The translations under genes were made by a program, and so were the position numbers. From the IMG/VR virus record IMGVR_UViG_2563366883_000008: 38,527 bases of DNA; one strand, 5' to 3'. The notes under the pieces are model-generated. The model worked only from the letters and a program-made list of their open reading frames with translations. It had not been told where the DNA came from and made no database searches. Below, piece by piece: positions 1-22,604 of the stretch. This DNA is from a virus (Duplodnaviria > Heunggongvirae > Uroviricota > Caudoviricetes). Each line of letters begins with the position of its first letter. Within the stretch, counting starts at the first letter, position 1.

Positions 1-738
1 TCATTCACTCTCTTTCAAACCAGTTTTAACTGTTTGTGGTTTTGGGTAAGGCTGGACTTTGAATAGCTTTGTGTTGAGGCGTTTTCTGGCCCTCTTGTTC
101 AGAAACCGGATGTAACGAAACTGTCGGAACTTATGCACACTGGCTCTGTCGATATTAGCCCTCAGATGTTCACCTCGTTGTCCGCCTCGTTTAATGGCAT
201 TCCTGCAAATCTCGTGATACCACTCGCCATCAAGTTCATAGAATATTGTTTCATGGCTGCCTACATAATCAAAATTGCTTGCCTGATACACGACACCAAG
301 ACAGCCACAACGCTCATCTGCAAACGACTGAACCCACTGTACCTGCGGATAAAGCTGCCTGATTAGCTTGAGCGCGTAACTGATTGCCCTTGATTCGGAG
401 TTTCTCGGCATACAGTCATGCAGCCATAGCCGGTTAAGCTCCATATATTCTCGGTTCTGCGTACCCGTTACGACGCGTGCACCACTGTTTGGGTTAAGGG
501 CGTAACCCCATTGCATTACGCCAACAAGTTCCCGTTCTGAAAATATGCCCAGATGAAGGTAGGAGTTATTTACGAAACGGTGGCTGTAATGTTTATTGAC
601 GATGACCAGTCTGGCCAGCCAGCAACTTATTGTCTCAACCCGCAACTCACGGGAGCCATAACCAACGATATTGTCGTTATAGCGAATAAGTTCAGGCGTG
701 CTGATGATACGGGATGTGACTTGCTTTCTGTTCCCCAC
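1..738 (-). CDS. mom: Mom-like DNA modification protein (245 aa); stop codon at 1-3 so the gene is complete
   Basis: Last gene after gin, start overlapped by an upstream Com-like zinc-finger ORF, as in the Mu com-mom operon. Call is positional plus approximate size; not verified by alignment. Confidence 0.55.
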
Positions 739-892
739 GACAGGATTTCCTTGTGTATGTGGGGTGCTCTGTGGCGCTCGGAGATGTGATTTGATTGAGG
801 GTTTTACAGCGCGGACATTTTACTTCCAGATAACTGAAACTGGCCCGTGCCAGTAGCTTATTGCAGTGTCGGCACCGTATGTTTCGATACAT
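692..892 (-). CDS. com: Com-like zinc-finger translational activator of mom (about 66 aa from the internal ATG)
   Basis: [10 protein letters not shown]...[10 protein letters not shown] CxxC...CxxC motif resembling Mu Com; AGGAGG upstream of ATG at 890-892; 3' end overlaps mom start. The ORF-track start at 937 is a TTG. Confidence 0.6.
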
Positions 893-934
893 GGCCGCAT
901 AACCTCCTGCTTTGTTGTTGATGCCTTTCTCATG

Positions 935-1080
935 CAATCGATCGACAAAAACGATCGATTCGATTTGTTTAATTGATACAACAAATAGATTGAAAAGTCA
1001 TCAACAATGATTCAGGGCGGTGATTATTTACTTAAAGAAAACGAAGAGTTAGGTGGTGAAAACGATCATAAAATGATCAT
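935..1080 (-). promoter_or_regulatory. Putative com-mom control region with clustered GATC (Dam) sites
   Basis: GATC at 940-943, 953-956, 1064-1067 and 1075-1078; palindrome GATCATAAAATGATC at 1064-1078; AT-rich; upstream of com. Mu Pmom is controlled by Dam methylation of upstream GATC sites. Confidence 0.3.
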
Positions 1081-2318: not shown

Positions 2319-4400
2319 TCATTTATTCACATTAGACGAAGAGACCGCATCGTTAACCTGCACTTTAATTGTGTCAAACAACATCGGGTAAGTGGCTGCA
2401 TTGCCGGTAATATCGGTCAGTGTCAGTTGATCCACCGTGAACCCGGCATTCACCCACTTCACAAGTTCAAATGGTTCACCATCTTTCCCGTCCAGAACTG
2501 GGGTAACACTCATGCTATTACCACCTGCAAACCGTAACGAGAGCGTATGCCATTCATGATCAAAGACACCATACGATCCTATCTGTTGACTTCCGCTCCC
2601 TTTGTGATACATCACATTCAGGTTAGCTGAATCCGTTTGCAGGAAACATGATGCGATGAGGTTATTTTTTCCGTCACCGTCAGGCCAGTTACTTACAGCC
2701 CAGTAAATACCAACACCATACCGGTTTTCCGCAATGCCCGCATCCGATGGAATTTTGAAACGGAGGGAAATATCACCACCTCTGGCGAACAAATCCCTGG
2801 CATTATCAGCTGTGATCGGATGATACATTTTCCATGAGGCCATGCTGTTAGGCGCTTTATTCACCCTTAACGCTTTGTTACCACCTGTTGCAGCAGCATC
2901 CGTGACAAAGGTTGCTTTTCCGGAAGCCGCATTCCACCCCTGATCTTTCATTGGTTCTGTCGGGGCGTTTGCAGTATACGAAACGATGATCTTCATCTGA
3001 TCGCTCACGTCCTTCACATCCCCGGTGGGTTCAGGCTCACTCTTACCGGTATCAGAATGTTCTGTTGCCGTTACACCGCGGAAGAAAGCAGATTTTTGTC
3101 CTGACAATGTCAGAATCGCTGTTGCCAGACGGTCTGAAATAATTCCACGGCGCGCCCATGAACTGAAATGGCTTGCCCTGTCGTTTGATGTCCAGTTAGT
3201 CGAATCGCGACTTATGGCACCATAATAGCCAATACCTGGAATATCCGGGTCTTCATCTGGATTATTTGTCGGTACATTTTTTCCATTTTCATCCACAACA
3301 AATGGAACAAAGTGAATGTTCTTTGCTTCATTAGCATATTTGCCATAAACAGCTTTGTATTGTTCTGGATATGTATTTTTCCAGTAATACGTCGTATCAC
3401 CACAGATCCACGGTACAGAAGCCATATCTCCGGCTGGAGATTGCGCAGAAAAAGCCGAAAGTTCACGCCTGAATGTTTCGACCATCGTCACAAACAGACC
3501 GGAATGTTCAGCATGTTTTCCTGTTTTCAGATCATTCTCGCCCTGCATCCAGACAACGGACAGGAGAATATTTCTGGGGTTACTGCTGAGAGCCGCTTTT
3601 GTTCGGTTAACAAGATCGCTGAACAAAGGTTTATTGACTCCCCAGCGCGATGATGCAGATGTTGCTCCGGAAGCTTCAGTAAATTCACCATCAGCACCAT
3701 CGGTAAATGCAGAGCCTCCTCTGGCACAGGGAACCAGAAGGATACCAGCCTCTTCCGGGATAAAGGGCAGGAGTTTTTTTGCAATATGCAAACCCTGGCC
3801 GACACAACCATACTGACCTTTTGAAAGATCTGCTTTTGGATGATTATGGTTACTCATATCCAGCACATCATGAAGACAGTGATCTGCCGGAATTATATCG
3901 TTGTAGGCGCATTCAACCCCGCCAGGTGTAACCGTGTTACGGCGAGCCAGCTGTTTAATACGTGGATCAGGTCGATCATAGGTATCAGGCAAAGGAAGAC
4001 CTTCACCAAATGACGATGCATTCGACTGACCAGCAATAACAACCACGTAATACCAGGACGGAGTTTGACCTGCAACTTTATCTCCTGCTGAAGAAGTGTA
4101 TGTTTCCGCATTGTTCCAGTCTGACGGTTCAGTAGTACCGGCAACATCAGCACTTAACGGAATGACAGCACCAATACCCGCTCCGGTAATTTCCACGTTC
4201 GGATCACCGGATACTGGCCTTACCCACAGGCAATCCCGTGTATTAAAACTGATGAGACAGTCAGCAAATGTCATACCTCCTTTCGTTTCAGCCGGAGGAA
4301 AGGGAGCCTCAAGAAATGCCGCTGTACCACCGGAAACTTTAACGGTAAAGTTTCCGGGCATTGATGATAGTTGAACCCATTTGGACGTCATAATATTCAT
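2319..4400 (-). CDS. SGNH/SASA-type carbohydrate esterase domain protein (sialate O-acetylesterase-like), 693 aa, with extra N- and C-terminal domains
   Basis: VVIAGQSNA block (GQSN nucleophile motif) in the central region; long C-terminal domain of unknown function; lies between gin and com where Mu has no gene. Family call from motif only. Confidence 0.6.
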   Translation of the reverse strand: MNIMTSKWVQLSSMPGNFTVKVSGGTAAFLEAPFPPAETKGGMTFADCLISFNTRDCLWVRPVSGDPNVEITGAGIGAVIPLSADVAGTTEPSDWNNAETYTSSAGDKVAGQTPSWYYVVVIAGQSNASSFGEGLPLPDTYDRPDPRIKQLARRNTVTPGGVECAYNDIIPADHCLHDVLDMSNHNHPKADLSKGQYGCVGQGLHIAKKLLPFIPEEAGILLVPCARGGSAFTDGADGEFTEASGATSASSRWGVNKPLFSDLVNRTKAALSSNPRNILLSVVWMQGENDLKTGKHAEHSGLFVTMVETFRRELSAFSAQSPAGDMASVPWICGDTTYYWKNTYPEQYKAVYGKYANEAKNIHFVPFVVDENGKNVPTNNPDEDPDIPGIGYYGAISRDSTNWTSNDRASHFSSWARRGIISDRLATAILTLSGQKSAFFRGVTATEHSDTGKSEPEPTGDVKDVSDQMKIIVSYTANAPTEPMKDQGWNAASGKATFVTDAAATGGNKALRVNKAPNSMASWKMYHPITADNARDLFARGGDISLRFKIPSDAGIAENRYGVGIYWAVSNWPDGDGKNNLIASCFLQTDSANLNVMYHKGSGSQQIGSYGVFDHEWHTLSLRFAGGNSMSVTPVLDGKDGEPFELVKWVNAGFTVDQLTLTDITGNAATYPMLFDTIKVQVNDAVSSSNVNK

Positions 4401-4490
4401 CCTGTTCCTGAATAAACAGAATTATCATATCCACAGACCGATAAACGCCATTTTGCGTTAATTCAGTAAAGGCCCAACAAAGGGAGCGTC

Positions 4491-5051
4491 TTATTTTTCC
4501 GAAACGCTCGCAGGAAAATAACGATAAAGGGTTGAAAGGCCGATATCAAAAATAAGTGCCACCTGTCTTCGGCTGACACCCCCGGCCAGTAAACGCCCGA
4601 CCTGCTCGTATTGTTCCTGCGTGAGACGACGGGGTCTGCCGCCGGTTCGTCCCCTTTCACGGGCAGCTGCAAGACCAGCCCGTGTCCGTTCGACAATCAA
4701 TTCACGCTCCATTTCTGCCAGCGCACCCATTATGTGAAAAAAGAAGCGCCCCATGGGGGTTGACGTATCAATGCTGTCAGTAAGACTACGAAAATTTATC
4801 CCCTGTTGCTGTAATTCATCTGTCAGCGCAACAAGGTGGCGCATACTGCGCCCCAGCCTGTCCAGTTTCCAGACCATCAGCGTGTCACCGGGTTTTAGTT
4901 TCTTCAGTGCCCGCTTCAGTCCCGGCCGCTGTGTTGTTTTTCCGCTCATTTTATCTTCAAAAATCTGCTCACATCCTGCACATTCCAGCGCATTTCTTTG
5001 TAAACCTGTGTTCTGGTCATTTGTTGATACGCGTATATAGCCAATCAGCAT
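4491..5051 (-). CDS. gin: Gin/Hin/Cin-family serine DNA invertase (186 aa)
   Basis: N-terminal IGYIRVSTNDQN catalytic-serine motif, C-terminal HTH; adjacent to an inverted-repeat-bounded tail-fibre segment. Confidence 0.9.
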   Translation of the reverse strand: MLIGYIRVSTNDQNTGLQRNALECAGCEQIFEDKMSGKTTQRPGLKRALKKLKPGDTLMVWKLDRLGRSMRHLVALTDELQQQGINFRSLTDSIDTSTPMGRFFFHIMGALAEMERELIVERTRAGLAAARERGRTGGRPRRLTQEQYEQVGRLLAGGVSRRQVALIFDIGLSTLYRYFPASVSEK

Positions 5052-5105
5052 GTATTTACCTTCCTTAAAAAGAGGTGGAAAGGCCTTTTAAAGCAGATAT
5101 ACGGC

Positions 5106-5131
5106 ATCCCTGAAACCTCGGTTTACGGGAA
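5106..5131. other. gix-like recombination site (left)
   Basis: Reverse complement reads TTCCCGTAAACC-GA-GGTTTCAGGGAT, close to Mu gixL TTCCTGTAAACC-GA-GGTTTTGGATAA as I remember it; central dinucleotide sits at the outer edge of the inverted repeat. Confidence 0.6.
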
Positions 5132-5266
5132 ACGGTAAATAAGGCGGCGAATGCCCTGCCATCGGACGGCACCGCTGCGGCAGCGAATAAACTCGCCACC
5201 CCAAGAAATATTAATGGTGTTCCTTTCGACGGGACGCAGGATATCAGCATTACTTCAGGGATGACG
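5119..5266. repeat. Inverted repeat, left copy (148 bp, identical to reverse complement of 6396-6543)
   Basis: Compared base by base in the sequence; identity ends exactly at the gix centre on the outside and after ATGACG on the inside. Confidence 0.9.
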
Positions 5267-5500
5267 CAGTCAACCGCAGATGACCGGTATGTACAGAACG
5301 TTCAGCTTGGAGCACAGAGCTATCATTCACCCGGAGGCAATGAAATGTCATGGAATTACAGTGCGCCTTCCGGTTGTATGCTTTCCGGTATTAACGTGCA
5401 GGAAACAGGAAAAAACTCTGCCGATAACATTGGCGGGGTTTATTTCCGTCCTGTGCAGATATATATCAGTAATGCATGGCGTACAGTTTCATCTGTCTGA
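5261..5500 (+). CDS. Alternative tail-fibre C-terminal segment (S'v-like), not joined to the fibre gene in this orientation
   Basis: MTQSTADDRYVQNVQLGAQ parallels MTESTANQRYVTGVRLGAQ of the fibre C-terminus; in frame with the inverted repeat so inversion would fuse it to the constant part. Confidence 0.6.
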   Translation: MTQSTADDRYVQNVQLGAQSYHSPGGNEMSWNYSAPSGCMLSGINVQETGKNSADNIGGVYFRPVQIYISNAWRTVSSV

Positions 5501-5505
5501 TGAAA

Positions 5506-5532
5506 GAAAAAGGGTGCGATAAGCACCCTTTA
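5506..5532. terminator. Bidirectional hairpin between convergent S'v and tail-fibre assembly genes
   Basis: aaagggtgc / gcacccttt stem with loop gataa, flanked by A-run and T-run. Confidence 0.5.
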
Positions 5533-5534
5533 AG

Positions 5535-6077
5535 TTATTCAGGCTGTTCGGGCCATTTAATGGCATCAAATTCAGCTTCAGTTTTAATGGCGGATGGTTC
5601 CATTTTTTTCACCTGACTGATGTATGCCATCCATCGGGTAAGTGCGGCTCTGTCTTCATCACTGATGGTGCCCAGCTGTAATTCTGTTCTCCAGTCATTA
5701 ATTTTTTCATATGCCTGATTAAGATATAACTGGCGCATTGCTTCCAGTTTTCTTGCGTAGTTAACCGGAATACGGGAGATCACGCCATTATCAAACTTCC
5801 AGTTACCCGAAATATCAGCACCTTCAGGGAGTTCGTCGACTTCAACCACAGAGAACCCCGCAGGATACAGCGCCGAAGCGTCCTGTGATATTGAGCAGAT
5901 AATGCCGCTGTCAGGTGTTATACAAAGTTTATATTTTTTGGTGAATAATGGCAGGGACTCGTAGAAATCCTTACCATCTTCACTCTGAAAATACTGTACA
6001 TCATTACCATAGAGGGTGTTTTCCGGGTAATATCGTTTAACATTAATCAGTTGCATAAACATCACCATGTGAATCAA
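5535..6077 (-). CDS. Tail-fibre assembly protein (Mu U-like), 180 aa
   Basis: Immediately downstream of the tail-fibre gene inside the invertible segment; size and position as for Mu U/Tfa. Positional call. Confidence 0.55.
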   Translation of the reverse strand: MIHMVMFMQLINVKRYYPENTLYGNDVQYFQSEDGKDFYESLPLFTKKYKLCITPDSGIICSISQDASALYPAGFSVVEVDELPEGADISGNWKFDNGVISRIPVNYARKLEAMRQLYLNQAYEKINDWRTELQLGTISDEDRAALTRWMAYISQVKKMEPSAIKTEAEFDAIKWPEQPE

Positions 6078-6176
6078 TGATAAAAACAGGAATAATACTA
6101 TCGCTATATACGGACAGGGATTGTCTGAGATAACACATATATCAGGCGCTGCCTGCCGTACGCCATGAGCCGTTAA

Positions 6177-7073
6177 TTAAATACTTGCAGCGGATACCCA
6201 ATTCCCATTAATACAATATTGTATCTGTCTGTAATAAACACGGTCATCACCACTACGCATTTCCCAGTCTCCATCAGTCTTAAAACCGGTAATCACATTT
6301 CCTGATGACAGGGAGTAATTATATTCCAGTCCGCCGCTTAATGCCTGCGCTCCCAGTCTTACCCCTGTAACATAACGCTGATTGGCTGTTGATTCCGTCA
6401 TCCCTGAAGTAATGCTGATATCCTGCGTCCCGTCGAAAGGAACACCATTAATATTTCTTGGGGTGGCGAGTTTATTCGCTGCCGCAGCGGTGCCGTCCGA
6501 TGGCAGGGCATTCGCCGCCTTATTTACCGTTTCCCGTAAACCGACGTTATCGATAAAGGTTCCTTTGTCCGCGATATCCGCGCCATTCTGATCCTTGCGC
6601 AGATAACGGTTATCACCTTCGCTCTTGCTGTAAACATCCAGATTCTGGCGGGCCGTCGGTTTATCCGGTACATCGCCAAAATTCATGGATTTCTCCAGTG
6701 CTCCCACATCATTAGCAGCCAGGCTGTCTTTTCCTGATAATCCTCCAAGCCCAAGATGACGGCGGGCAGCAGCCTGTGCTTCTGCACCTGCATCCGCAAT
6801 CTCCTTAAGGTTGTTTTTCCGGCTGTATGCGTTTGCTGCAATGATTGCCTTAATGGCTATCACCAGCTGGTTCAGTTTTGCCTTATCCGGCTGAACCTGT
6901 CCTTCTGTCAGAATGGCAAGCAGCTCTGCCTGCACGATGTTCAGCCAGTCCTGACCTATATGGCTGATCCCTTTGCGTCCGTCACCTTCAGTAAACCATT
7001 TAACCTGCGTGCCCTGTGAGGGGGCCAGTGGTGGCATATCGGTCACACCTGAATTGTTGTCGACAAAATACAT
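6177..7073 (-). CDS. Tail-fibre protein (Mu S-like): constant part plus variable C-terminus inside the invertible segment
   Basis: Follows baseplate genes; its 3' part crosses the 148-bp inverted repeat (6396-6543) and the gix-like site. Confidence 0.8.
   Translation of the reverse strand: MYFVDNNSGVTDMPPLAPSQGTQVKWFTEGDGRKGISHIGQDWLNIVQAELLAILTEGQVQPDKAKLNQLVIAIKAIIAANAYSRKNNLKEIADAGAEAQAAARRHLGLGGLSGKDSLAANDVGALEKSMNFGDVPDKPTARQNLDVYSKSEGDNRYLRKDQNGADIADKGTFIDNVGLRETVNKAANALPSDGTAAAANKLATPRNINGVPFDGTQDISITSGMTESTANQRYVTGVRLGAQALSGGLEYNYSLSSGNVITGFKTDGDWEMRSGDDRVYYRQIQYCINGNWVSAASI
6396..6543. repeat. Inverted repeat, right copy (148 bp)
   Basis: Reverse complement identical to 5119-5266; lies inside the tail-fibre coding sequence. 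Confidence 0.9.
6531..6556. other. gix-like recombination site (right)
   Basis: TTCCCGTAAACC-GA-CGTTATCGATAA; inner half-site identical to the left site, outer half-site diverged. Confidence 0.6.
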
Positions 7074-7630
7074 TACTCCGTCTCCTCATGACTGTTTTCG
7101 TACAGATATAAAAACGTCTGCCAGGCTGGCTTATAACGGTTTAAAATGCACTCCAGCGCACTTGCATCATAAATTCGCAGTGGCGTAAGAATATCGTCCA
7201 GTACATTCATGTGACGGTATCCAACCGCTGTCTTCACTGTCACAATACTGATCCATTGTGATTCCGGTGATGGCTGGATATCTATTTCATAACCAAACTC
7301 TGCCGCAAACCGGATATAAAATTCACGGTTAAGAGAGGGTTTCATCCGGTATTTATTCCCGGCATAACGCTGACGCTCCTGAATGGTTGCGCCGGTCATA
7401 TCACATTCCGGTAACCCCAGATAACGCTCCCAGTCTTCCAGCAGCAGACGGGATGAATCAGGAAAACGTTCTGCCAGCATCTGGTTGCCGGTCCAGGAAA
7501 CACGCTCCGTGGAATGACTGAGGCCCAGGCACAAAGCCGCAAGAACGGATGACGGCCGCTTATCCCATACCAGCCCGTCAGGCAGCAACTGCAACAGGGC
7601 GCGCTGATGCGGGGTCAGGGTTACAGCCAT
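7073..7630 (-). CDS. Baseplate/tail protein (Mu gp48-like), 185 aa
   Basis: Position between baseplate J-like gene and tail fibre; 1-nt ATGA overlap with the fibre gene. Confidence 0.65.
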   Translation of the reverse strand: MAVTLTPHQRALLQLLPDGLVWDKRPSSVLAALCLGLSHSTERVSWTGNQMLAERFPDSSRLLLEDWERYLGLPECDMTGATIQERQRYAGNKYRMKPSLNREFYIRFAAEFGYEIDIQPSPESQWISIVTVKTAVGYRHMNVLDDILTPLRIYDASALECILNRYKPAWQTFLYLYENSHEETE

Positions 7631-8706
7631 GTGATTTCCCCCACGGTCAGCAACTCTGTATCTCCGGCCATCACGGACTTCAGCGGGCTGCGAACTTCAA
7701 AATCCTCCAGTCCTTTCACCCCTGCAACAGCCCGCCAGAATGATGAAGGCAATACAAGTCCACCCGGCCGCGATTCGTTATAAAGCAGGTCCGTTAATGC
7801 CTGTTTTACGGCAGCCTGATTTTCCGGCGTTTTGGGTACAATCCTTATCTCAAACACCACCGGCTTATTGGTCAGCTTAAACACGCTGATTGTCGGCCCA
7901 AGTGGCTGACCAACGGGCTGGCCCGTCGCCGGATCATCATGACTGCGGATATAATCCGCCACCCGCTTCACATCACCTTCCCCGGGGAAAATGTCAGGGT
8001 TATTATCCTGAACAAAAGTCACACCAACACTACCAGCCTCAGGCCATTCAGGCTTACACCATGCCCGCGTCACGCCAGGTACTTCCCGTGCCCAGCGTTC
8101 AAAATCATACTGTGTTCCCCCTGATGGCGGGTTCTGTACCCGGAATACCAGCCTGGACAGCAACTCCGGCACCGTTTCCACATCCGCACCACCGGTGAGT
8201 CCCGTGCCGGTGACCGTGGCTGTCTGGTTGATGCCCGCCTGTGGTGTGATAAAGGACAGGCGGGTTCCGGTCGGGGTATTTCCGGCGCGCCCCGCACTTT
8301 CCGCCTCCACATTAACATTCAGTGTTCCGGCTTTTCCGGTCGCAGAGCCAGTGATGCGGTACACAACACCATCGCTTCGCTGAAGGAGTACGCCTTCCGT
8401 GATCCCTGCATCCGTGGTCAGCATCAGTTGTACCGGTCCGTCAGCGCGGGAAGCCGGTTTACGGATGACACCCCAGAATGCGCAGTGTTTCAGGAGTTCG
8501 GCTTCATCAGCTTCTGTCGGAATTATCTGCCGGGAGATCCAGGCCAGATGTTCATGCTCCTGTGCTGACAGCCCCGCCTGTGCATACGCAATGGCATTCA
8601 GGGTGGTTTCATTCACGCCCGGCTGCGAACCGGGCAGGCGCTGGCTGATATCCTGTTGTGTCTGTGTGATCAGTTGCGCCAGTGGTAAGGGCTGATAAGG
8701 CATCAT
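7621..8706 (-). CDS. Baseplate J-like protein (Mu gp47-like), 361 aa
   Basis: Size and position in the baseplate module; translationally coupled to neighbours. Confidence 0.75.
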   Translation of the reverse strand: MMPYQPLPLAQLITQTQQDISQRLPGSQPGVNETTLNAIAYAQAGLSAQEHEHLAWISRQIIPTEADEAELLKHCAFWGVIRKPASRADGPVQLMLTTDAGITEGVLLQRSDGVVYRITGSATGKAGTLNVNVEAESAGRAGNTPTGTRLSFITPQAGINQTATVTGTGLTGGADVETVPELLSRLVFRVQNPPSGGTQYDFERWAREVPGVTRAWCKPEWPEAGSVGVTFVQDNNPDIFPGEGDVKRVADYIRSHDDPATGQPVGQPLGPTISVFKLTNKPVVFEIRIVPKTPENQAAVKQALTDLLYNESRPGGLVLPSSFWRAVAGVKGLEDFEVRSPLKSVMAGDTELLTVGEITWL

Positions 8707-9140
8707 TCCCCCTTCATATCAGCATAAAAAATCATCGGATGTCTGCTTCCGTCCGGCAGGGTGATTTTCACGGAAAGCGAAAGGCGATCATGCCCCACAC
8801 GCATGGCATGACATACCACGGATGTGGCAGCACCGCTTTTATGCAGCCACGCCAGCGCTTCATCAGCATAGGCCTGTGCACGGCTGACCACGGAGGACAG
8901 CGTCTTTTCACGGCTTAACAGCCAGAGACGGGAGCCAACGGGGCGCTCCCGGAAACTGTCTCCCCACCATCCCCGCCTGTCACGAGTGCCGTCAGGGATT
9001 TCATCAGAATCCAGCGCCCGCCTGTCCGTAAACAGCGAAATCAGAACGGCCGTCAGCAGACTGTCATCCGTCAGCAGGTCGGCACCGTTCAGTTGCAGCG
9101 AGCCGCACCCCTGATCCCATACAATTGCAATATCAGCCAT
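8703..9140 (-). CDS. Baseplate wedge protein, GPW/gp25-like (Mu gp46-like); start at internal ATG 9138-9140
   Basis: ATG overlaps the stop of the upstream gene (ATGGCTGA); the longer ORF in the track would overlap it by 150 bp. Confidence 0.7.
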   Translation of the reverse strand: MADIAIVWDQGCGSLQLNGADLLTDDSLLTAVLISLFTDRRALDSDEIPDGTRDRRGWWGDSFRERPVGSRLWLLSREKTLSSVVSRAQAYADEALAWLHKSGAATSVVCHAMRVGHDRLSLSVKITLPDGSRHPMIFYADMKGE

Positions 9141-9747
9141 TCTCCGGTGCTCCTGTCTTACTGCCTTTGCCGTTATCCTGATGCACATGACCGGAATACC
9201 GTATCCCTGCAATAACGGCATCCGACATTGTGAACAGTCCCTGAGATTTCCCCGTACCATCAAGCGCGAAATTCCCCTTAACATGCAGGTTTTTATCCAC
9301 CGTCACATTGCCCGTAAAGGTGGCTTCCGGCGTATCCACCCGCATCCCCTCGTCGGCGTAAATCTCCAGCATTTTGCATGTCACAATAATGCGACCATCC
9401 TTTGTTAACCGTATCCGGTGCCCCTCATGGTGATACACCCCCGTATCTCCGGCTTTGAGTCCGGTCGGACGGCTGCGCCGGTCTTCCACCACAAGCACCA
9501 CAGTCTGATCCCGCTGTCCGCCCAGACAGGCAAAAAAGGTTTCTGCACCCGGCAGGGGAACGCTGATCTGCCCGTACTGCTGGGGGCGCTCCACATCATC
9601 AAAGGTTTCGCCGTCCATGCCGGTGAGCTGCACATTCTGCATTTTCAGTTCGTCATGTGTGCCGGTCAGAACGCCCCGGCCAAACAGCAGGCGAATACCG
9701 CGCGTTACCGGGGCAATCAGGCGGCTGAACACTTCATCATTCATCAA
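9133..9747 (-). CDS. Baseplate assembly protein V-like spike (Mu gp45-like), 204 aa
   Basis: Position and size in the baseplate module. Confidence 0.7.
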   Translation of the reverse strand: MMNDEVFSRLIAPVTRGIRLLFGRGVLTGTHDELKMQNVQLTGMDGETFDDVERPQQYGQISVPLPGAETFFACLGGQRDQTVVLVVEDRRSRPTGLKAGDTGVYHHEGHRIRLTKDGRIIVTCKMLEIYADEGMRVDTPEATFTGNVTVDKNLHVKGNFALDGTGKSQGLFTMSDAVIAGIRYSGHVHQDNGKGSKTGAPENG

Positions 9748-10861
9748 AGCTGATCCCCTGTTTTTTCATCTGCTGGCGAATAAAGGCATCAACATCGTCA
9801 CCGGAACCACCCCGGCCCTTACTGTCCGGCTCTGCCGGAACGATAAAGCCGTCACGCGGTGCCAGTACCAGCCGGGTGACTTCCCCGTTCTGTTCATCCA
9901 GTAAAAACTCCACCTGACAGACCAGCAGTTCAGTCTGTTCTATACCGAAACGCTGGGCCGAAACACCGGTCAGCAGATTGACATCCCATAACCGGCCATC
10001 ATCCCGGAACCAGCCACGCACGGTGGCAGAAAACCGTTCTGAACGGGCAATCGCACGGCGCATTTCACGCAGGGCACGCTGCCGTGCACCGGTGGTGTCT
10101 GTCTGTTGATCGGCGAGGATGATTTTCGGCCGGTAGCGGCCGATCTGCTCATCACTGATGACGCCCACAGGTGCTGCCAGCCGGGCGGCGGACTCGCTGT
10201 CTCCCCGTTTGCCACCACCGCGCCCGTGTCCCCGGACACGGTATTCACTGTATCGTCCTCGCCAGTCCGTGTTGTAATCGGCATCAAGCAGGTTATCTCC
10301 CAGCACCAGTCTGTCCGTCTGCTGGCTTCCTGCCTGGGTGAACACCAGATCGCCGTCAGCATTACTGGTCACCAGCACCCCGCGATGCCGAGCAGAACGG
10401 GTCAGCGCATCCGCCACGGTTTCTGAGTTTTCCAGCGTAAAAGAGCTGAAAGGGCGTGCAGCCGTGTCGTCGTTAACCTGCCAGCGCACAGCTATCCCGA
10501 AGGGCGCACATAAATCTGCGGCAATCTGTGCCAGCGTCCGGTTGCGCCACTGACTGCCGGGGTGGATGGCGGCACAGTCCACCAGATCGCCGGTTTTATC
10601 CCGGCCGCTGATGCTGATCTGATGACGGGTTGCACTGATCCGCTGACTGACCTGATCCAGCCAGCCACTGATGACCGTCTGCCCGTTAATTCTGAGCGTC
10701 AGGGACTGACCGGTCCGCAGGGCTGAGGGGATGCGCTCACCGGGCAGCATCAGCCCCAGTTCAAACGACCCGGCCAGATGCTCCAGCGAGCGACGGACGC
10801 TGACCGTCAGCCAGCCGGAAAAAATACTGCCGCCGATATACAGTTCAATCCTGCTGCTCAC
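9737..10861 (-). CDS. Tail protein P (Mu gp44-like, late control D-like), 374 aa
   Basis: Position after the DNA circularisation gene; size. Confidence 0.7.
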   Translation of the reverse strand: MSSRIELYIGGSIFSGWLTVSVRRSLEHLAGSFELGLMLPGERIPSALRTGQSLTLRINGQTVISGWLDQVSQRISATRHQISISGRDKTGDLVDCAAIHPGSQWRNRTLAQIAADLCAPFGIAVRWQVNDDTAARPFSSFTLENSETVADALTRSARHRGVLVTSNADGDLVFTQAGSQQTDRLVLGDNLLDADYNTDWRGRYSEYRVRGHGRGGGKRGDSESAARLAAPVGVISDEQIGRYRPKIILADQQTDTTGARQRALREMRRAIARSERFSATVRGWFRDDGRLWDVNLLTGVSAQRFGIEQTELLVCQVEFLLDEQNGEVTRLVLAPRDGFIVPAEPDSKGRGGSGDDVDAFIRQQMKKQGISFDE

Positions 10862-12203
10862 TGATCACCTCCACGCTGCGGCCACCCGGAACAAAAACCG
10901 GATCGGGGATGTTGTTTCTGCGGACAAAATACTGCCAGCGGCGGCTGTTGCCGGTGGCACGGTACAGCGTGACCAGTGCCGGTTCGGTGGTTCGCACCAT
11001 GACCTGAAAAGCACCGGGAAGATGAACACTCCGCGTGGTTAAATCTTCTGTCAGCGCAAGCCCTGCATCACGTAATGCAAGGGCGGTGCCGGTATGGCCC
11101 TGTGCGGACAGATCCAGTACCTGTTGTTCCATGGCATCACTCAAATCCCGGTTGATACGCTGCACATCGGCAGAACTTTCCAGCCAGGCCAGTCCACCCG
11201 CACGGTCAGTATCCTGAACGTGCCTTGTATTCTGCCGGATGACCTGATCCAGCAGTTTCCCGACCGTCTGCGCCTGCGACACCAGGGTTGCACTCTGCAT
11301 GACGCTCCGCAGCAGACGGATATTTTTCTGTGCCGCAGGCGTCAGACCAATCAGGCGCTGCGGATCATCCTGTTCGCTGAGGGTGTAACGCAGGGAAGAA
11401 AGTGTGCGGTACAGCTGCGGCATTGCCTGCTCTGTCATGCTGTCACGGTTTGTGGTCAGGCTGCCGGACGGCCTTCCTGCCTTCCCGGTCAGTGACAGGG
11501 AAGGATTGCCGGGCAGCCCGGTCAGCACGGCAAATATTCCGGCCAGCGATTCAGCCATGCGACGGGGCGCATTAATCAGGGCGGCGGCATTGCCTTTAAT
11601 GGCGGTAAAACTGGCCGTAAAGGCACTGACATCCTGCACAATCCCCATCCCTGAAACGGCATTCTCCAGCGCATCAATCTTATCGCTGATGGTGTCGGTC
11701 ATGGCCTGAACATCATGCAGACCGTCTGAAATCACCGTCCAGCCGTCTGAAAGCGTGTTAAACAGCTGATTCATTGCTGAACCGCTTTTCTGCTCCAGCG
11801 CAGCTGCCGTATCTTCTGCCACCGAAGGGGCGGTATCGTCACTGGCGGGGATCACGTTGATCGTGAACTCAACCGTTCCCTGCTCGCTGGCGTTATAACG
11901 GCTTTCAAAGCTGTTTATCAGCACGTTTAACGTGCCGTAATCCGGGTGCATCAGTTCACCGGCACCGGGTGCACGCAGCGCATCACGCAGGCGGCTTCGC
12001 TGTGTCTGAAGATCGTCTCCGGTCACCAGAACCGTGAATGTGAACTCCGGGAGTTTTGGCCCCAGATCATCCGCACCGCCGCTTTCACGCAGTGGGTATT
12101 CACGGCGCACAATGTTACGTCCGCCCCGTTCCCGCTGCTCCTGATAAACCAGGAACGGTACGCCACGAAAGGAGCCACGCCCCGGCGTGTCAGTAGAGGC
12201 CAT
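10845..12203 (-). CDS. DNA circularisation protein N (Mu gp43-like), 452 aa
   Basis: Position directly after the tape-measure gene; size. Confidence 0.7.
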   Translation of the reverse strand: MASTDTPGRGSFRGVPFLVYQEQRERGGRNIVRREYPLRESGGADDLGPKLPEFTFTVLVTGDDLQTQRSRLRDALRAPGAGELMHPDYGTLNVLINSFESRYNASEQGTVEFTINVIPASDDTAPSVAEDTAAALEQKSGSAMNQLFNTLSDGWTVISDGLHDVQAMTDTISDKIDALENAVSGMGIVQDVSAFTASFTAIKGNAAALINAPRRMAESLAGIFAVLTGLPGNPSLSLTGKAGRPSGSLTTNRDSMTEQAMPQLYRTLSSLRYTLSEQDDPQRLIGLTPAAQKNIRLLRSVMQSATLVSQAQTVGKLLDQVIRQNTRHVQDTDRAGGLAWLESSADVQRINRDLSDAMEQQVLDLSAQGHTGTALALRDAGLALTEDLTTRSVHLPGAFQVMVRTTEPALVTLYRATGNSRRWQYFVRRNNIPDPVFVPGGRSVEVISEQQD

Positions 12204-20686: not shown

Positions 20687-21160
20687 TTAAGGCGTTTCTG
20701 TGGCCTTTTTAAAGCGTTTTCTGATTTCGGCCATGATCTCCTGCTCTGCCACCTGATCAAAGCCCATATACGGACGTGCACCAATGGCCGCCGGTCCAGG
20801 CGGCATACCTGGCAGGCCACCCCACTGATGAATGGCCGCATAAGGCTCATTTGATCCAATCAGCGCCCAGGTATCGCCATAATCCGTGGTCAGGCGTCGG
20901 GCCAGATCGCCGTTCAGCGTCAGGATTTTGCCGGGCATGTATCCCTTACGGGTACGCCACTTGCGGTAAGGATCTGACCAGTCATGCCAGCGTTCGCCGT
21001 CCGGCTCTTTTTCCTGTTCAAACGCCATTTCTGAGGATGACAGAAGGCTGGACGCCACACTGCGGGCCAGGTCTTTTCCACCACCCACAAACTGAAGCCG
21101 GGCAAAGACCCGCTGGAGACGCGCAACGTCCACCACCACGGCTGCATCGATGGATGACAT
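20687..21160 (-). CDS. Virion morphogenesis protein (Mu G-like), 157 aa
   Basis: Size (Mu G is about 156 aa) and position after F. Confidence 0.7.
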   Translation of the reverse strand: MSSIDAAVVVDVARLQRVFARLQFVGGGKDLARSVASSLLSSSEMAFEQEKEPDGERWHDWSDPYRKWRTRKGYMPGKILTLNGDLARRLTTDYGDTWALIGSNEPYAAIHQWGGLPGMPPGPAAIGARPYMGFDQVAEQEIMAEIRKRFKKATETP

Positions 21161-21198
21161 GTTGCCTCCTTAAAACTATCTGATTAAAATAAATACAG

Positions 21199-21278
21199 GC
21201 CGGTGTACTCTTAACTGGTAAAGCGGCATAAACCCTCAGGGGTCATATGTTTATGCGGGTTCGACCCCCGTCACCGGC
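21199..21278. other. Structured GC-rich element in the F-G intergenic gap (nested stems, tRNA-like acceptor/T-arm geometry)
   Basis: gccggtg (21199-21205) pairs with caccggc (21272-21278); internal gcataaac/gtttatgc stem; gcggg-TTCGACC-cccgt hairpin; a U-rich tract follows on the minus strand before the G RBS. Confidence 0.3.
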
Positions 21279-22604
21279 TTACAATTTACCTTCCAGTAGT
21301 TCCAGCTTTCCGCCCTCTATTGCTTTTTCAATATCAAATTTATTTACCCGGTAAGCATTAATTACCACATCCAGCTTATCCGGCTGGCGCTTCACACCAT
21401 AAGGCGCATTGACGGCAATCTTTGCCGTTCCGTCACGGGTTTCAGTGATGTAAAGCAGGTTCTGGTGGACATTATCCCACAGCACGGCATCGGGGGCGGC
21501 CAGCATTGCCGGTAATCGCCCGAAATCCTCCGGCGTCAGGGCAATGCCGTCATTCTGATGTTTCACGCTGTCCGCATGGAGCACATTTTTACCGCTCATC
21601 GCCAGCAGGCGGGCCGGTGGCGTTCCCGTCCGGCTTTCCACCGCCTGCGCAATACTTTCGGTCATAAAGCCCAGCGTGCGGATATCGTTACCGCCTCGCC
21701 GGGTTTTCATGATGTTTTTTGCCCAGATGCGGAACGCCAGCTGCCGCTCCGGGCTGTTGTTCATCTCCTGAACCACCATTTCCCGTAACGCCGGGCTTTT
21801 CACCTCGATCAGTTTACGGATCAGCGCCTGGTCTGTGCCGAACGCCGCCGAACCGGGGTTATATGACCAGCCCACATCCGGTGTCATGGTTCTGGTGCCA
21901 TCTGAATATGTGGTCACCGGCATTTCTCTGACTTCCCCGGTCTGCTTATCCACGCCAGCCTCAACATTGCGGGTGGAGAGATGATCCTGACCGGATGAAA
22001 CAGAGAGTCCCATTGCATCCAGACGGGCCTGAGACAATGGCCGGACACGGCAGCGACAGTTCCAGCCATTGGGCGGGTAGTGTGTATTCCAGAACGGATC
22101 GTCATAGCGGAATACCAGCCCGTTAAGGGCGGAATGCGCCGGGCGGGTGCGGCTGTCCATCACCGCCACATACTGCCAGAACGGATGCGTGTCCGTGTTG
22201 TTCATCATCTGCGTGTAACGCCCGGCATTGTAAGCCACGCGGGTGTTCACGTTGTAAATCAGCGCCAGACGACGGGGACTGCCCAGTTGCACTTCTTCCG
22301 CGTTCCCTGCGCTGTCCACCACAATCTGCTTTCCCCACCATCCCAGCTTTTGCAGGCGGGGTGTCAGCGTGCGGATAAATGCTTTCTGTGAAATCCCCTC
22401 ATCAACAGCACGCTGCACTTCCGCCTGTAGTGTGGTCAGTACGTCCAGGCGTGCCACTTTTGCCGCCGTGAATGAACGGGCATGAACATCCGCGTCTGTT
22501 TCGAACCAGTTCCAGCTGATATGCACCCCTTTGGCGCGGAAGTATGCCACCGCCTCTTTTGAGGGAAGGGTGGCGGCATAACCTAAATCAATCCCCTGAG
22601 CCAT
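21279..22604 (-). CDS. Head morphogenesis protein (Mu F-like), 441 aa
   Basis: Size and position after the portal gene. Confidence 0.8.
   Translation of the reverse strand: MAQGIDLGYAATLPSKEAVAYFRAKGVHISWNWFETDADVHARSFTAAKVARLDVLTTLQAEVQRAVDEGISQKAFIRTLTPRLQKLGWWGKQIVVDSAGNAEEVQLGSPRRLALIYNVNTRVAYNAGRYTQMMNNTDTHPFWQYVAVMDSRTRPAHSALNGLVFRYDDPFWNTHYPPNGWNCRCRVRPLSQARLDAMGLSVSSGQDHLSTRNVEAGVDKQTGEVREMPVTTYSDGTRTMTPDVGWSYNPGSAAFGTDQALIRKLIEVKSPALREMVVQEMNNSPERQLAFRIWAKNIMKTRRGGNDIRTLGFMTESIAQAVESRTGTPPARLLAMSGKNVLHADSVKHQNDGIALTPEDFGRLPAMLAAPDAVLWDNVHQNLLYITETRDGTAKIAVNAPYGVKRQPDKLDVVINAYRVNKFDIEKAIEGGKLELLEGKL

Follow-up and report, generated by a model that had tools for sequence, protein, structure and literature searches.

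A Gin-family tail-fibre switch with a single assembly gene, and the question of one chaperone for two tips

Textbook accounts describe such fibre switches as mirror-symmetric pairs, each alternative tip having its own chaperone gene and inversion choosing between them. The 38,527-nucleotide IMG/VR record IMGVR_UViG_2563366883_000008 (Caudoviricetes; "the window" below means this whole stretch), on sequence grounds a Mu-like prophage in reverse orientation, contains a small invertible tail-fibre segment next to a gin-like invertase gene, and this segment holds only one tail-fibre assembly (tfa) gene. How, then, is the fibre assembled when the segment is flipped? A sequence-only reading of the window had held that the flipped orientation would express a fibre variant without a cognate chaperone downstream. 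As a description of gene order this is correct; as a statement about function it is probably wrong. We consider it moderately probable that one independently transcribed chaperone is shared by both tips, a view that draws on the structure of the switch, its conservation and the selection acting on its parts.

The locus has the invertase and the paired crossover sites of a Din-family switch, together with a candidate enhancer (table 1). Over 181 amino acids the invertase shares 75.7% identity with Mu Gin; it has Ser9 in the motif IRVSTNDQ and combines an N-terminal catalytic domain with a C-terminal helix-turn-helix (HTH); its gene lies 66 bp from the left crossover core, adjacent to the segment as previously read. 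Mu gin has Fis-like motifs at the same three positions as the candidate enhancer within the window gene, the motif being a degenerate one, and nucleotides 61-120 of gin are 80% identical to Mu. The segment of ~1.4 kb between the cores is bounded by two inverted 26-bp sites related to gix and hix, each with a 2-bp core. Compared with the Mu gix, TTCCTGTAAACC-GA-GGTTTTGGATAA (taken from the Mu record), the inner half-sites match at 11/12 positions and the outer ones at 7/12 and 9/12, the latter being that of the Sc-proximal site. The 14-mer TTCCCGTAAACCGA has two copies in the 38.5-kb window, inverted (5118-5131 on the - strand and 6531-6544 on the + strand), for ~0.19 chance matches expected. 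Positions 5119-5266 had been described as the exact reverse complement of 6396-6543, which they are, and since one further base matches outward the perfect arms measure 149 bp; an inward extension at lower identity reaches 5114-5292 and 6370-6548 (179 nt at 95%). At both sites the repeat has the crossover dinucleotide at its outer edge, also as proposed.

The fibre open reading frame (ORF; 6177-7073, - strand) encodes 298 amino acids, its 3' end being a 74-residue tip that begins MTESTANQ, and a second tip of 79 residues beginning MTQSTADD lies at 5261-5500 on the + strand; these are the two alternatives of about 80 residues that had been predicted. When the segment is inverted in silico between the cores, the constant part of the fibre (Sc) is joined in frame to the alternative tip (S'v), yielding a fibre of 303 amino acids, so that S'v is not put out of frame by inversion, the outcome that would have spoken against a switch. 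The constant N-terminus outside, the alternative C-termini inside and their in-frame fusion by inversion reproduce the architecture of the Mu G and P1 C segments. The expressed tip (Sv) and S'v are homologous (37.5% identity), and each of them aligns to the tip of Mu S in its crystal structure with Tfa (PDB 5YVQ), Sv at residues 436-503 of chain A. S'v shares 60% identity with the SfMu S' tip and 52-59% with P2-like H tips.

Both orientations occur naturally, with gin present. Escherichia coli JNEC-KY203 and STEC1587 have the flipped state, 99.4% and 98.7% identical to the in-silico inversion product, and in the annotation of their loci the fibre gene has 912 nt and tfa lies on the other strand; E. 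coli CP55_Sichuan has the orientation of the window. O157:H7 and other Shiga toxin-producing E. coli (STEC) carry a relative with ~84% nucleotide identity, and of these the O157:H7 strains F7508 and Z869 differ by inversion alone. Because the repeat arms of this O157 type are only 75% alike, the crossover could be mapped, and the breakpoint falls within 13 bp, TCGGTTTACGGGA, which start with the core dinucleotide. This comparison of natural inversion products shows the crossover to lie at the gix core; it points to inversion of the Gin-type site-specific kind and speaks against homologous exchange along the arms. Together with the in-frame S'v, the Gin homologue and the gix sites, the two natural orientations bear out the Gin-family switch that was first proposed. 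The same relatives bear on the suggestion that the perfect repeats imply ongoing gene conversion. Recent homogenisation stands, but the identity is lineage-specific and is not needed for switching, since inversion also takes place in the O157-type relatives, whose arms are only 75% alike; the 149-bp repeat thus indicates, from these alignments, a recent homogenisation of a shared coding stretch in one lineage and not a part of the mechanism. Assemblies break at the gix and repeat sites: ten IMG/VR contigs of the short-fibre family stop inside this region, as could be expected if cultures holding both orientations had been assembled, although repeats alone could also be the cause.

One Caudo_TAP gene is found in the segment, as had been claimed, unlike the two each of Mu, SfMu, Fels-2 and Yersinia phage vB_YpM_3, and the mirror symmetry of Sv-U / U'-S'v, with a tfa of its own behind each tip, is absent here. 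A hairpin takes up the 34 bp that separate the stop codons of S'v and tfa, leaving no room for a remnant of a second tfa. Tfa shares 29-34% identity with U and U' of Mu and SfMu (32% with Mu U) and 47% with tail2 of Rac-SA53. Its gene stands directly behind the fibre gene, across a gap of 120 bp, in the in-line orientation only; in flipped and locked forms the two genes are convergent. In the direction of tfa (- strand) the hairpin scans well as an intrinsic terminator; its U-tract on the + strand is weaker. In single-tfa loci the fibre and tfa genes are separated by AT-rich leaders (51, 69, 79 or 120 nt), as against gaps of 1-19 nt in two-tfa loci. Between the window and the O157 type ~65 bp beside the tfa start are near-identical, and the tfa coding sequences are 58-75% identical.

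The layout with one tfa recurs. Among 38 IMG/VR loci with short fibres (293-322 amino acids), ten end in the gix/repeat region and the other 28 have a single tfa each; a second tfa was found in none of the 28 loci that reach past the first (0/28). Mu-type IMG/VR loci that extend far enough have two, as do Mu, SfMu, Fels-2 and vB_YpM_3, in mirror symmetry. A scan of species-representative genomes gave 5 loci, that of IMG/VR being far richer. The same one-tfa layout is seen in three E. coli lineages, and a Mu-like prophage of Citrobacter braakii has a fibre gene, a hairpin, then a tfa and an alternative tip convergent with the fibre gene, then gin; its tips are longer and different, its Tfa has 229 amino acids, and the tip backed by tfa is the S'v-like one. 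Judged by this distribution, the one-tfa layout is a conserved design across several lineages and not a product of decay. Other peculiarities of these loci may be recorded here. In C. braakii a third gix-like site stands between the invertible segment and gin (sites at 6819-6852, 8780-8856 and 9190-9223 of locus L012), which suggests that more than two arrangements may be possible, and past gin come a collagen-repeat fibre-like gene and a further tfa (9934-10896 and 11061-11477). In E. coli SCU-171 (L010, 4261-5142) the fibre gene is split into several short annotated ORFs, and this prophage copy appears, from its reading frames, to have a decayed fibre.

Selection on the silent tip gives a first indication of how the flipped state functions. 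Between lineages S'v has a ratio of nonsynonymous to synonymous substitution rates (dN/dS) of 0.06-0.08 at dS 0.8-2.1, values that show it, by the measure of codon change, to be under strong purifying selection and constrained like a working gene. The flipped state is also the commoner one: with at least 80% query coverage required, 185 complete E. coli genomes have the tfa-antisense orientation vs 22 with tfa in line, in a set dominated by related STEC in which clonal inheritance may inflate the ratio, and the IMG/VR loci L018-L061 divide into 14 tfa-antisense and 6 in-line. The excess may reflect clonal inheritance in STEC or selection. The recombinant gix sites are identical in both states, so no orientation bias caused by sequence is expected.

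A natural deletion offers a further view of tfa. In a locked sub-lineage, present in 8 IMG/VR loci and, among the matches listed, 7 complete E. coli genomes (S1-CAM-01-A and mouse strains M1, M3 and M18 among them), one deletion took Sv, a repeat, a gix site and ~500 bp of gin, leaving a fixed fibre gene, the hairpin and a convergent tfa. All members have one common junction, with the last ~65 bp of gin left as a scar, and because of this junction and the retained gin end we regard the locked form as the outcome of a single old deletion. The idea that the gin-less convergent layout is ancestral was set aside on the same remnant. The locked loci retain the complete tfa leader of 120-133 bp, the only upstream sequence common to invertible and locked forms, and have at least two different fibre tips. 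Their tfa is intact, with dN/dS of 0.11-0.23 between members; being constrained while never co-transcribable with the fibre gene, it would have to be expressed independently.

The pairing of Tfa and tip in other loci points the same way. Three Sv tips, 29-47% identical among themselves, go with the window type of Tfa (83-91% amino acid identity), and in the O157 type the same two tips are paired with a Tfa of only 64% identity. Among phage proteins the nearest to the window Tfa is tail2 of Rac-SA53 (47%), encoded 2 nt downstream of a fibre gene whose tip is 64% identical to S'v. On these pairings the window Tfa looks promiscuous. Purifying selection on S'v, the commonness of the tfa-antisense state, the constrained tfa of the locked lineage and the Rac-SA53 Tfa behind an S'v-like tip all tell against a flipped fibre that would lack a chaperone in the functional sense.

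The working of the switch can now be described. A Gin-family invertase recombines the two gix-like sites and flips the 1.4-kb segment, so that Sc is joined in frame either to the Mu-S-like Sv (298 amino acids, the state of the window) or to the S'v that resembles SfMu S' and P2 H (303 amino acids). On the reading that we propose, the tfa gene, its 120-bp leader and the terminator hairpin would form a self-contained transcription unit moving with the segment; Tfa would be made in either orientation and would chaperone both tips. The switch would then be a pared-down G segment and not a broken one. We more tentatively propose, as a possibility that we rate somewhat below even, a minimal cassette in which a promiscuous chaperone gene with its own promoter and terminator lies inside the flipping segment and serves both tips, tfa being also read by the late operon when in line and facing convergent late transcription when flipped; if so, inversion could alter chaperone dosage besides tip identity.

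Several observations weigh against a shared chaperone made from its own leader. In a sigma-70 scan, promoter-like sites were no more numerous over 4400-7200 than in shuffled sequence, and the tfa leader had none; a hexamer scan of leaders from six lineages gave weak candidates only, the best being GCGATA-16-TATCAT; such weak hexamers would match the look of an activator-dependent late promoter. A box for the late activator (C) was sought in the tfa leader and in the presumed Plys, PI, PP and Pmom, and none was identified; the TTAT-N6-ATAA visible in Mu Pmom is not seen in the region upstream of mom here. In the flipped state, late transcription reading past the weaker side of the hairpin would enter tfa in the antisense direction. 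Furthermore, divergence among locked tfa alleles may stem from recombination with gin-positive relatives, which would weaken the argument from selection, and the genomic prophages may be defective, persistence being no proof of infectivity.

Other explanations start from the same facts. The switch might work while the S'v fibre bypasses the resident Tfa, either by folding without a chaperone or by using a Tfa from another prophage in the cell, in which case inversion would also toggle the presence of Tfa at the fibre tip. The antisense position of the flipped tfa relative to the late operon and the lack of a convincing site in promoter scans of its leader would accord with this, as would the many other tfa genes carried by E. 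coli hosts, one genome having up to nine places that match the region. Moreover, Mu Tfa reportedly stays attached to the tip of the fibre, and whether it is there or not could therefore make a difference. Yet the S'v-like tips of SfMu, P2-like phages and Rac-SA53 each have their own Tfa behind them, and in Citrobacter it is behind the S'v-like tip that tfa stands, so no tip type is consistently free of a chaperone; the locked tfa, intact and constrained though cut off from co-transcription with the fibre gene, also speaks against a bypass, which we consider unlikely. A further scenario would have the flipped orientation as a non-productive OFF state, or the segment as decaying, with the second chaperone lost and S'v fibres defective. 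No tfa lies downstream of S'v, unlike in every characterised Gin or Cin switch examined, and this is what such a scenario would lead one to expect. It fits poorly with the low dN/dS of S'v, with a layout conserved over diverged lineages and another genus, with the supposedly defective orientation being the commoner one in the genomes counted, and with a lineage that was fixed in that orientation and nevertheless persisted and diversified its tips; we give it little credence.

The remaining two alternatives concern how the flipped tfa is expressed and how the segment inverts. A fixed promoter in the gin-gix spacer might read through the silent Sv remnant into the flipped tfa, the leader itself having none. 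The one-strand order of the flipped state, gix, repeat, Sv remnant, leader and tfa, would permit this, but the scan found no promoter-like site on that strand in 5052-5117, and the locked lineage is without the entire spacer and yet keeps the leader and an intact, constrained tfa. Such an outside promoter is very improbable. Least probable of all is that RecA-dependent homologous recombination between the 149-bp repeats, and not the invertase, drives inversion: 149 bp of perfect inverted identity would suffice for it, but O157-type loci with their 75% arms occur in both orientations with a breakpoint confined to 13 bp at the gix core, and an intact Gin homologue with two gix sites is present. 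A single chaperone gene shared by the two tips thus remains our preferred reading.

Table 1. Positions of the switch components and neighbouring genes in the window, with the loci of the locked lineage.
Feature	Position	Strand	Remarks
Com and Mom homologues	1-937	-	phrog_6417/phrog_13819, phrog_1384; left end of the window
693-aa SASA/DUF6645 gene	2319-4400	-	directly downstream of gin; matches phrog_143 (function not assigned)
gin-like serine DNA invertase, 186 aa	4491-5051	-	Pfam Resolvase (PF00239) 2.7e-51, HTH_7 (PF02796) 2.9e-15
Candidate recombinational enhancer inside gin	4913-4981	-	Fis-like 15-mers at gin nt 71, 94, 125; degenerate motif
gin-proximal gix-like crossover site	5106-5131		reverse complement is TTCCCGTAAACC-GA-GGTTTCAGGGAT; core 5118-5119
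Left arm of perfect repeat	5118-5266		codes fibre residues common to both variants
S'v, alternative tip (unique part)	5267-5500	+	silent in the window orientation
G+C-rich hairpin between convergent S'v and tfa	5509-5531		-23.5 kcal/mol, z = -6.3
Tail-fibre assembly (Tfa) gene, 173 aa	5535-6056	-	Pfam Caudo_TAP 3.6e-19; phrog_136; PDB 5YVQ chain B (Mu U)
tfa leader, 120 bp, Sv stop to tfa start	6057-6176	-	putative orientation-independent tfa promoter site
Sv, tip now expressed (unique part)	6177-6395	-	60% identical to Mu S C-terminus
Right arm of perfect repeat	6396-6544		
Sc-proximal gix-like crossover site	6531-6556		TTCCCGTAAACC-GA-CGTTATCGATAA; core 6543-6544
Sc, constant fibre N-terminal part	6545-7073	-	outside the invertible segment; 46% identical to Mu S residues 1-187
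Mu gp48 homologue	7073-7630	-	
Mu gp47 homologue	7621-8706	-	
Locked loci	L027, L029, L031, L036, L038, L039, L050, L051, L098 (e.g. L098 2413-3272)		

The surroundings of the switch deserve brief mention. The 693-residue protein encoded downstream of gin has a carbohydrate esterase domain of the SASA sialate-O-acetylesterase type together with DUF6645; no Mu gene occupies that place, and the gene is kept in the annotated relatives examined, gin-deleted locked ones included. From its domains, the product could be a virion-borne or conversion-type deacetylase of O-antigen or capsule. Upstream of com there are clustered GATC sites as in Mu Pmom, but not the C-protein site of Mu. A tRNA-like stretch near 21160-21279 was discarded, ARAGORN calling no tRNA there. 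In relatives, RefSeq presents the silent tip (window 5261-5500, + strand; L001 3861-4085) as a partial pseudogene or hypothetical protein and places a 61-residue ORF antisense to the repeat (window 5065-5250, - strand; L001 3665-3850); both the pseudogene call and the antisense ORF are annotation artefacts of the switch.

The one-tfa family is widespread in E. coli, STEC and O157:H7 included. A literature search found no description of an invertible segment with one tfa and no paper on the switch of the O157:H7/STEC Mu-like prophage, which is probably of the Sp18 type and which Stx-phage (Shiga toxin phage) records annotate only as "inserted Bacteriophage Mu-like phage". If a single chaperone gene is enough, Tfa specificity within the tip superfamily would be broad, and the chaperone would be expressed independently of the fibre operon. 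This is relevant to the engineering of phage host range, in which tips might be swapped without swapping the chaperone. The one-tfa switch is a variant of the G/C-segment plan, opening no new class of mechanism.

How the locus relates to known switches is best seen against the G segment of Mu, which D108, SfMu and Yersinia Mu-like phages also have. The order gp47, gp48, fibre, invertible segment, gin and com/mom is the same, the invertase is 76% identical to Gin, the gix sites are closely similar, and in both the fibre has its constant N-terminus encoded outside the segment and its alternative C-termini within it; the Sv tip shares 60% identity with that of Mu S, and Tfa is homologous to Mu U. 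The window differs in having one tfa in place of U plus U', a segment of 1.4 kb vs 3 kb, variable parts of ~75-80 amino acids vs ~335 in fibres of ~300 vs 504 amino acids, a 120-bp tfa leader vs a 2-bp gap between S and U, and, in its own lineage, a repeat of 149 bp vs 34 bp. Between gin and com it also has the SASA/DUF6645 gene and small ORFs (DUF1378 and DUF826 proteins in relatives). The C segment of P1 and P7 with Cin, and the Fels-2 region, share Din-family switching of fibre C-termini and have homologous tips and Tfa; they differ in having two tfa genes in mirror symmetry. P1 also shares the long inverted repeats, with a crossover site placed at the outer end of each. In carotovoricin Er a small invertible segment beside an invertase gene is reported to swap only the C-terminal end of the fibre gene; this is a tailocin and not a prophage. 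Closest of all is the O157:H7/STEC Mu-like prophage, which shares the architecture at ~84% nucleotide identity, with both orientations among strains, and differs in having arms 75% alike instead of perfect and a Tfa 64% identical to that of the window.

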